DNA from: Methanomassiliicoccaceae archaeon
GTDB taxonomy: Archaea; Thermoplasmatota; Thermoplasmata; Methanomassiliicoccales; Methanomassiliicoccaceae
Length of the DNA stretch: 64,000 nt
Assembly: GCA_040776945.1 (NCBI GenBank)
Contig: JAXGZN010000001.1
Location: forward strand, 224,001 to 288,000
Direction: 5' to 3'
Positions within the stretch are counted from its first letter, which is position 1. The number at the start of each line of letters is the position of its first letter. The notes below the pieces were generated by a model. It ran no database searches, was not told where the DNA came from, and saw only the letters and a program-made list of their open reading frames with translations. This document shows positions 18,689 through 36,533 of this stretch, piece by piece. Position numbers and translations under genes: made by a program.

Positions 18689-19087
18689 TTCAGCTCCCTC
18701 ATCGTCTTCACCATCTCATCATCTACGCCCTCATTAAGGATCGCTTGATCTGAGCAGGGTCAGCGATCGTGCCGCGGAACCCCTTTTTTCGGGCGATATC
18801 CTTTTTGCATATGGTTCAGCATATATGCAACTTGCTGGCACTATCGCAGAACGGCGATGTCTTGCCCTGCGGGACCTGTTCAGATCATGACCTCCAAGGC
18901 GGCAGGACCAGGAGGCCATGCATTGCTCTTATCATGAAGATCGATCGCCTATGGCACGGTTGAGATGGAGGGTGAGGAGCCAGAGACCATTTGGACAACG
19001 AACATCTCCTCGAATTGCATATTTCCCTCAACGAAGAGAGGGCGCATATGGAGGAAAGGCAAAAATCGACTTGACCAGATTAAGGAG

Positions 19088-19259
19088 TGGGGGCACTGGG
19101 ATTTGAACCCAGATCAGCGGGTTTCCACCGGACAGGGAGCGACCCTGTCGGAATCGTACGGGTCAACGCTCCAGTCAATCATCACTGGTCAGCAAACCCG
19201 TTCTCTTTCATTCCCGTATAACTGGAGCCCGCGAGGATACCGAACTACCCCATACCCCC
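19088..19259 (-). tRNA. tRNA-Trp(CCA) with about 99-nt intron at 37/38
   Basis: GGGGGTA/TGCCCCC acceptor, GCGGG-CT-CCA-G|intron 19123-19221|A-CCCGC, GGTTCAAATCC T-loop. Confidence 0.95.
19123..19221 (-). ncRNA. Intron-encoded box C/D guide RNA (predicted Cm34 and Cm39 of pre-tRNA-Trp)
   Basis: C-like AATGAA, guide CGGGTTT + D' CTGA, C' GTGATGA, guide ACTGGAGC + D-like TTGA; the N+5 rule targets C39 and C34. Confidence 0.85.
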
Positions 19260-19270
19260 ACTGTTCAGCA

Positions 19271-19378
19271 TTATACCTTGCGCATCTTCTGCGCGCGCTT
19301 GCGGCGCCTCATCTTCTTCTTGCGCCACTTCCATCTTTGATTGCCTCGCTTCTTCCAAGCGCGTGAGCTTCTCTTCAT
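19271..19378 (-). CDS. rpl41e: Ribosomal protein L41e (eL41/eS32), not in ORF track
   Basis: MKRSSRAWKKRGNQRWKWRKKKMRRRKRAQKMRKV*; RWKWRKKKMRR is the L41e signature. Confidence 0.9.
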   Translation of the reverse strand: MKRSSRAWKKRGNQRWKWRKKKMRRRKRAQKMRKV

Positions 19379-19445
19379 CAGTACTCCTCAGTGCTATATT
19401 CTTGCCCTGAATCATCGGGCCCATATGAAGGTTTGGATTGGGAAA

Positions 19446-19565
19446 TGGCGGGCTCGTCGGGAATTTCGCCTTCTCCAGAAGGTTTCGAACCCGAGACCAC
19501 TGACTTGCTTCCATGGCAGGCCACGGTAGAAGGCCAGTGCTATATCCAGGCTAAGCCACGAGCCC
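19446..19565 (-). tRNA. tRNA-Arg(TCT) with two 21-nt introns (37/38 and 59/60), encoded CCA
   Basis: GGGCTCG/CGAGCCC-G-CCA acceptor; CTGGC-CT-TCT-A|19506-19526|A-GTCAG; TCGGG-TTCGAA|19463-19483|T-CCCGA; both introns form BHB motifs. Confidence 0.92.
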
Positions 19566-19715
19566 GTAAACCCTCGATAGGGCTTTTGCAATAAAAGGTT
19601 TGGCCCACTGCCATGAGCACACACGCGGACCGAATTTGGCCTGGGCCCCCGCCATCGCCCTGGCCGCAACAAATAATGATATTGGCTTGAACGGCCTTTC
19701 CAGCCCGAAGATCAT

Positions 19716-36429: not shown

Positions 36430-36533
36430 TGCCGGGGATGGGCTTTGAACCCATGACCTACGGATCTCCCGGACCCTGGCCTGTGGCCAGGACCTTATGA
36501 GTCCGTCGCTCCACCAGGCTGAGCCACCCCGGC
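36430..36533 (-). tRNA. tRNA-Met(CAT), elongator-type, 30-nt intron at 37/38 (36466-36495)
   Basis: GCCGGGG/CCCCGGC acceptor, ACGGA-CT-CAT-A|intron|A-TCCGT. Confidence 0.93.

Follow-up and report, generated by a model that had tools for sequence, protein, structure and literature searches.

The window (the whole 64,000-nt stretch of DNA analysed here, from a Methanomassiliicoccaceae archaeon) carries on its minus strand a real tRNA-Arg(UCU) gene that is interrupted twice, by one intron in the anticodon loop and one in the T-loop, as confirmed to the base. By direct reading of the minus strand, G1 lies at window position 19565 and the encoded CCA at 19446-19448. The parts of the gene are the following:

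19446..19565, minus strand: pre-tRNA-Arg(UCU) gene, 120 nt (direct reading; ARAGORN call after removal of both introns in silico)
19527..19565, minus strand: exon 1, 39 nt, with the acceptor 5' strand, the D arm, the anticodon stem 5' strand and the loop through A37 (ARAGORN and BLAST)
19506..19526, minus strand: intron 1, 21 nt, at the canonical site 37/38, strict hBHBh' (motif reading)
19484..19505, minus strand: exon 2, 22 nt, with A38, the anticodon stem 3' strand, the variable loop, the T stem 5' strand and T-loop positions 54-59 (ARAGORN and BLAST)
19463..19483, minus strand: intron 2, 21 nt, at T-loop site 59/60, strict hBHBh' (motif reading, covariation and a gap in an RNA-library contig)
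19446..19462, minus strand: exon 3, 17 nt, with U60, the T stem 3' strand, the acceptor 3' strand, G73 and CCA (ARAGORN and BLAST)
19590..19596, minus strand: TTTTATT, a TATA-like box about 25-31 nt upstream of G1, putative archaeal promoter (direct reading only)

When both introns were removed in silico, ARAGORN returned a clean 78-nt tRNA-Arg(tct), CCA included, with regular stems and 7-nt anticodon and T-loops. It made no call on the unspliced sequence or after removal of intron 1 alone, and a wrong one, Glu(ctc), after removal of intron 2 alone. BLAST of the spliced product on the genome of origin gave back the same three exon blocks, exon 1 (spliced positions 1-39) being found at C1:243527-243565; the 39 nt of this exon are 100% identical in the intron-less orthologues of genus g3 (see below). 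Intron 2 lies between T-loop positions 59 and 60: before it the exon ends in UUCGAA, after it the next exon opens with U and the CCCGA stem, and positions 54-60 of the joined loop read UUCGAAU.

A tRNA-Trp(CCA) gene occupies window positions 19087-19259, also on the minus strand, about 190 nt downstream of tRNA-Arg(UCU). It contains a 99-nt intron (19123-19221) at 37/38, yields a clean 74-nt tRNA when spliced in silico, and is missed by default ARAGORN and by Rfam at the gathering score. Its intron bears a weak resemblance to a C/D-box sRNA (Rfam sR3, 27 bits, below gathering).

Each of the two introns of tRNA-Arg(UCU) lies within a bulge-helix-bulge (BHB) motif of the strict form, i.e. with two 3-nt bulges and a 4-bp helix between them in which all four pairs are formed, flanked by an outer helix in the exons and an inner helix in the intron. 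In the case of intron 1, the central helix is CUUC/GAAG, the bulges are UAC and CAA, the anticodon stem (at least 5 bp) serves as the outer helix and CGUGG/CCAUG (5 bp) as the inner one. For intron 2, the corresponding elements are UUCG/CGAA, AAA and AUU, the 5-bp T stem, and CCUUC/GAAGG (5 bp). Both motifs can form simultaneously in the precursor, whose minimum free energy fold (-51.9 kcal/mol, z = -2.96; 1 of 200 shuffles folds as well) contains the T-arm BHB exactly as predicted, and an anticodon arm with the same 3' bulge and with its 5' side in a slightly different register. An earlier note made from the sequence alone had proposed a tRNA-Arg(UCU) with two BHB introns at 37/38 and 59/60, the removal of which would give a normal 78-nt tRNA, and it proved right in every detail checked by motif reading and ARAGORN.

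As a chance control, strict motifs were excised in silico over the whole genome and ARAGORN was then asked for tRNAs spanning the junctions. Among the 20,182 nearby pairs formed by 32,029 strict BHB candidates, exactly one, the pair of the tRNA-Arg(UCU) gene, yielded a tRNA upon double removal, a count that holds for strict motifs only since the scan is blind to relaxed ones. Indeed, it missed the two-intron tRNA-Lys(UUU) gene of the same genome (described further on) because the D-loop motif of that gene is not strict.

The tRNA-Arg(UCU) gene escapes two of the tools commonly used to find tRNAs. ARAGORN did not find it in unspliced DNA, either with or without intron mode, and Rfam missed it at the gathering score, the tRNA model scoring just 15.6 bits (E = 1.9); the suspicion voiced in the earlier note that standard annotation may overlook this gene is thus justified for these two tools. 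A tRNA-Gly(acc) called by ARAGORN in intron mode overlaps the locus and was rejected as spurious; that mode yields several false genes, whose introns measure from hundreds to thousands of nucleotides. BLAST of the spliced product detected no second Arg(UCU) gene in the genome, the other matches being short T-arm and D-arm similarities to other tRNAs. The genome (2.17 Mb in 2 contigs) is 99.84% complete and, by our own tally, contains 47 tRNA genes, one alone of which has the anticodon UCU. AGA accounts for 1,675 of 331,790 codons, i.e. about 5 per 1,000, in a crude count over 565 long open frames. The sole AGA decoder of these methanogens is invisible to two common tRNA finders, and genomes annotated with ARAGORN or Rfam will appear to be devoid of one.

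The failure of both tools to recognise the unspliced sequence is also what a decayed pseudogene might give, in which both 21-nt segments would be insertions that stay in the RNA while a different tRNA reads AGA. Such a pseudogene would have an intact redundant copy elsewhere and exons free to decay. Here, the gene is the sole UCU copy of a 99.84% complete genome in which AGA is in use, which makes a silent or dead gene very unlikely, and both inserts sit in perfect BHB motifs. The pseudogene is contradicted as well by the conservation of the gene and by an RNA contig lacking exactly intron 2 (both presented below), and we consider it exceedingly improbable.

A match to the gene was found in 38 of 41 related genomes, the genome of origin included. 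Thirty-five complete orthologues could be parsed: 23 carry both introns, 4 the T-loop intron only, 4 intron 1 only and 4 neither, so that each of the two introns is present in 27 of the 35. The three remaining matches comprise two genes cut by contig ends and that of G037, which appears intron-less from BLAST pieces. The orthologues with intron 1 only all belong to genus g8 of family f3, and those without either intron all belong to genus g3 of the window's own family. Within the window's own genus, the 8 complete genes (that of the window included) all carry both introns and a ninth, cut by a contig end, carries intron 2. The exons are nearly invariant across the order. All 27 T-loop introns retain the four central pairs, the 3-nt bulges, the 5-bp outer helix and an inner helix of 3-6 bp, the sequence of which varies from lineage to lineage (CCUUC/GAAGG, CCCCU/AGGGG, CUCUC/GAGAG, GUCC/GGAC and others). 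Nearly invariant exons together with intron hairpins that change by compensatory pairs are not what decay of a pseudogene would produce.

A scan of one genome per species extended this picture, with at least 119 records showing an Arg(UCU)-type T arm with a T-loop insert. Among the matches listed, the record titles name Methanomassiliicoccales, Methanomassiliicoccaceae, Methanomethylophilaceae, Methanoplasma, Methanogranum, Methanomicula and unclassified Thermoplasmata. Pooling of the loci gave at least 150 Arg(UCU) genes with a T-loop intron, some genomes possibly being counted twice as they were fetched by two tools; among the matches listed, 77 have intron 1 and 73 do not. Four contigs with an Arg(UCU) gene and a T-loop intron are filed under other names, namely Faecalibacterium sp. 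CAG:74 (L090), Eggerthellaceae bacterium (L129), Ca. Bathyarchaeota (L149) and Methanomicrobia archaeon DTU008 (L144), and are probably mis-binned or mis-labelled.

The pooled loci include at least 107 distinct T arms and at least 56 distinct inner helices. In an alignment of 107 T arms, 98.8% of the cells are paired versus 85.4% in shuffles, and none of 500 shuffles attained any of the observed covariation measures. When the partner strand was slid by 1-3 columns, pairing fell to 18-66%. Many of the sequences were retrieved with a search pattern that itself dictates part of the T stem and the central helix, and the unbiased covariation test is thus that of the inner helix only, in which all 5 pairs display changes on both sides. 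The T-loop intron is therefore old and widely shared in the order, not a one-off oddity; most likely, the ancestor of the order already had it, and several losses followed.

Part of the stretch is present in 14 RNA-library runs, and contigs were compared from four metatranscriptomes belonging to four studies (X1, X2, X8 and X9); the evidence consists of assembled contigs, not of individual reads. One X9 contig (441 nt, depth 10.7), which comes from a near-identical but not identical strain, spans window positions 19085-19537 and lacks exactly 19463-19483, i.e. intron 2. The gap coincides with the predicted cut sites to the base, a shift by one base giving a different sequence. Most simply, this contig would represent a spliced precursor. 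In X1, X2 and X8, the contigs that extend over intron 2 contain it in unspliced form; they may correspond to precursor RNA or to DNA carry-over, and are informative neither way. A second X9 contig, matching exon 1 only, was assigned to another organism and discarded.

The intron of the neighbouring tRNA-Trp gene provided a positive control. X2 and X8 each contain a 129-nt contig in which window positions 19123-19221 are joined head to tail, which is the signature of a 99-nt circular intron RNA, and excision of exactly these positions leaves a perfect tRNA-Trp(CCA). Splicing products thus do reach these libraries, two of the four runs containing this circle.

The 21-nt gap could, however, reflect not splicing but the DNA of a strain devoid of the T-loop intron, in which case the introns would be real and there would as yet be no transcript evidence. 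Apart from the gap, 5 positions distinguish the X9 contig from the window; intron 1 and the tRNA-Trp intron are both still in it, an odd finding for processed RNA; and the order does contain alleles of this kind (those of genus g3, and those of family f3, where intron 2 is lacking). On the other hand, intron 2 is carried by the 8 complete genes of the window's own genus out of 8 and by the ninth, truncated one, the gap respects the predicted cut sites to the base, and the tRNA-Trp intron circle, cut at its own predicted sites, is found in two of the same four runs. We consequently deem an intron-less strain unlikely, and regard excision of the T-loop intron in RNA as partly shown.

The genome encodes the enzymes that splicing of the two introns would require. 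EndA, the type of which had been left to be determined by the earlier note, is specified by a single locus, a 351-aa open reading frame (L001:1462-2517, minus strand) in which Pfam recognises PF02778 and PF01974 (the N-terminal and catalytic domains) twice each; with its two tandem units, this EndA is of the α'2 architecture, as judged from its domains. Its best relatives of solved structure are the αβ fusion of M. kandleri (5x89, E = 1e-40) and the α'2 enzyme of A. fulgidus (1r0v/2gjw, E ~2e-29). Pairwise HMMER alignments to 5x89 and 1r0v show no insertion before the catalytic histidine. The ligase RtcB is encoded as well (591 bits). According to excerpts of PMC4033280, PMC4090602 and PMC5829648, α4 and α'2 enzymes cut strict BHB motifs only, and the first two usually describe the action of α'2 enzymes on such motifs at the canonical position. 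Since both motifs of tRNA-Arg(UCU) are strict, no new enzymology is needed.

Very probably, then, the locus is a functional single-copy tRNA-Arg(UCU) gene that serves as the AGA decoder of a Methanomassiliicoccus-like archaeon and both introns of which are spliced by an α'2 EndA and RtcB. The primary transcript would fold so that each intron is held within a strict helix-bulge-helix-bulge-helix, with two 3-nt bulges flanking a 4-bp helix. In the T arm, the T stem would form the outer helix, U54-U55-C56-G57 would pair with CGAA near the 3' end of the intron as the central helix, and the short hairpin of the intron would provide the inner helix. A homodimeric EndA, presumably the α'2-type enzyme described above, would cut both bulges of each motif, and RtcB would be expected to join the three exons into a tRNA of 78 nt whose T-loop, UUCGAAU, is normal. 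The preference for position 59/60 probably stems from the near-universal sequence of the T-loop, which already provides one of the two strands of the central helix: any insert made of a hairpin, CGAA and 2 nt should be a perfect substrate in any tRNA.

The site is occupied well beyond Arg(UCU). Of 401 genomes sampled from the class, two of which (G135 and G244) are unpublished, 218 contain a match to a pattern for inserts at 59/60 (GGTTCGAA, a gap of 14-24 nt, then CGRAANTCC), versus 2 for the reversed-pattern control. The matches are distributed by family, with positive families such as f10 (46/46), f16 (48/59) and f21 (34/44), and negative ones such as f24 (0/43), f13 (0/10) and f19 (0/8). 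Outside the class, the pattern was found in 12 of 162 genomes of a sample of the phylum versus 5 for the control. We fetched 40 of the matches. In 22, ARAGORN called a tRNA directly after removal of the insert (Lys CUU, Lys UUU, Arg CCG, Arg UCG, Arg UCU, Gly UCC, Asp GUC and Leu CAA); in 15, it did so only after removal of a second candidate intron, which makes these calls less certain; and in the other 3 it found no tRNA. Five genomes of the class that are rich in 59/60 inserts all encode an EndA with two catalytic domains in one frame. The view of the earlier note that such introns are uncommon in euryarchaeal-type lineages thus does not apply here, with the T-loop intron in 27 of 35 orthologues of the order and the 59/60 motif in 218 of 401 genomes of the class.

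We tentatively suggest, as a reading that is possible though by no means assured, that 59/60 BHB introns are a hallmark of the class Thermoplasmata, with over half of the genomes sampled and no fewer than nine tRNA species containing them and an α'2 EndA in 5 of 5 lineages checked, and that they form a family of minimal introns that spread by using the universal T-loop as half of the splice-site helix. If true, this would contradict the rule given in reviews that euryarchaea with α4 or α'2 enzymes have single canonical introns only. Position 59/60 emerges as a hot spot for which a simple structural explanation can be given, and it is this class-wide hot spot that is most worth following.

The long retention of the T-loop intron across at least 6 families of the order, and the occupation of site 59/60 in many tRNAs of the class, may also be taken as a sign that the intron is kept by selection, either because it disrupts the attB site of integrating viruses or plasmids, an idea of Randau and Soll quoted in PMC4090602 (consulted as an excerpt), or because it holds back modification of the T-loop until the tRNA has been spliced. 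Alternatively, the intron would be a neutral passenger, difficult to get rid of. The intron has been lost repeatedly without visible consequence (in g3, in g8 of f3, and in g15, g18 and most of g20 of f7), the order of the downstream genes is identical in intron-bearing and intron-less forms, and no guide-RNA-like content is apparent in its 20-25 nt hairpin, all of which makes selection quite unlikely in our opinion.

In the literature, of which we drew on excerpts, 59/60 is a listed site of non-canonical tRNA introns (PMC4090602) and introns at this site are documented in ARMAN-2 (PMC3239211). The ARMAN-2 case resembles ours in the site and, for its Pro gene, in the strict BHB and the presence of two introns; it differs in that the ARMAN-2 EndA is a three-unit ε2 enzyme with a specificity loop and broad specificity, whereas here the enzyme is α'2, the gene concerned is that of tRNA-Arg(UCU), its other intron is canonical, and conservation of the feature extends throughout an order. 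Thermoproteales (Sugahara et al. 2008, as cited in PMC4033280 and PMC4090602) likewise have non-canonical BHB introns, at 59/60 among other sites and up to three per gene, but with an (αβ)2 EndA bearing the crenarchaeal specificity loop and with many relaxed motifs, whereas both motifs are strict here and the enzyme is α'2. Methanopyrus kandleri pre-tRNA-Glu(UUC) (PMC5829648) combines one canonical and one non-canonical intron in a euryarchaeal-type lineage. Its non-canonical intron, however, is a relaxed HBh' in the D-loop, and its EndA is (αβ)2 without the loop; the α'2 enzyme of A. fulgidus cut this relaxed intron poorly (PMC5829648).

Another precedent is an uncommented entry, marked "novel", in the supplement of tRNAscan-SE 2.0 (PMC8450103), as excerpted: a tRNA-Lys(UUU) of Ca. 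Methanomassiliicoccus intestinalis Issoire-Mx1, 139 bp in length, with predicted introns at 22-55 and 95-125. It shares with our gene the order, the presence of two introns and the location of one of them in the T-loop; it is a different tRNA, and its other intron lies in the D-loop, not at 37/38. The genome studied here has the orthologous Lys(UUU) gene, the D-loop and T-loop introns of which match this entry. Should genus g3 be the genus of Ca. M. intestinalis, the Arg(UCU) gene of that organism would be intron-less. This entry means that T-loop introns of the order have already been picked up by software, which weakens the novelty supposed in the earlier note. As for Arg(UCU) itself, a search of full-text literature and of the excerpted supplement brought up nothing that mentions or lists this gene, its conservation throughout the order or the 59/60 pattern seen across the class, and the texts as retrieved do not discuss tRNA introns of Methanomassiliicoccales or Thermoplasmata. 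In the retrieved part of Borrel 2014 (PMC4153887), the sole intron mentioned is a group II intron, and the portion at hand of a 2026 preprint on Asgard introns does not mention Methanomassiliicoccales or Thermoplasmata.

The excerpted reviews state that euryarchaea with α4 or α2 enzymes have one intron, at the canonical position only (PMC4090602), and that Korarchaeum is the sole α2 organism with non-canonical introns (PMC4033280). The introns described here are of a standard archaeal kind, but they are old and common in a lineage where, according to reviews, they should not be. Reviews tie non-canonical and multiple tRNA introns to (αβ)2 and ε2 enzymes; these introns are common in a lineage with an α'2 EndA. 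Co-evolution of intron position with the type of endonuclease, as supposed there, is weaker than stated.

By our tally, 12 of the 47 tRNA genes of the genome carry 14 introns, 5 of them at non-canonical sites. The tRNA-Lys(UUU) gene mentioned above (G000:C1:643697-643843, minus strand, outside the window) went unseen by ARAGORN and Rfam. Both its introns are non-canonical: one of about 37 nt in the D-loop, the motif of which has no directly adjacent outer helix, and one of 31 nt in the T-loop at 59/60. This gene escaped the 59/60 pattern because its gap is 25 nt. D-loop introns of about 25-27 nt are also present in tRNA-Thr(CGU) (G000:C1:801413-801511, plus strand) and tRNA-Leu(CAA) (G000:C2:1055484-1055594, minus strand), both outside the window; the former was found by Rfam only and the latter was mis-called by ARAGORN. 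The BHB motifs of both show slight irregularities, either a mismatch in one central pair or an offset of 1 nt between outer and central helix, a point of note in the presence of an α'2 EndA. A tRNA-Trp(cca) called by ARAGORN in intron mode at G000:C2:551148-551245 (plus strand, outside the window) was rejected, as removal of its 22-nt intron leaves the loop CUCCGGA, which makes the gene a tRNA-Arg(CCG). ARAGORN also called a tRNA-Pyl(cta) at G000:C2:368947-369018 (minus strand, outside the window), which fits a methylotrophic methanogen of this order. Within the window, a tRNA-Met(CAU) gene at 36430-36533 (minus strand) has a 30-nt intron at 37/38; Rfam detects it with 53.8 bits and default ARAGORN misses it.

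Finally, a 35-aa open reading frame rich in Lys and Arg (MKRSSRAWKKRGNQRWKW...) lies on the minus strand between the tRNA-Arg and tRNA-Trp genes (window 19271-19378). It had no Pfam match. It is preceded by a Shine-Dalgarno-like GGAG and by a AAACCTTCATAT box resembling the box upstream of tRNA-Arg, and its start and upstream box are conserved 3' of tRNA-Arg(UCU) in many relatives. Its product may resemble ribosomal protein eL41.
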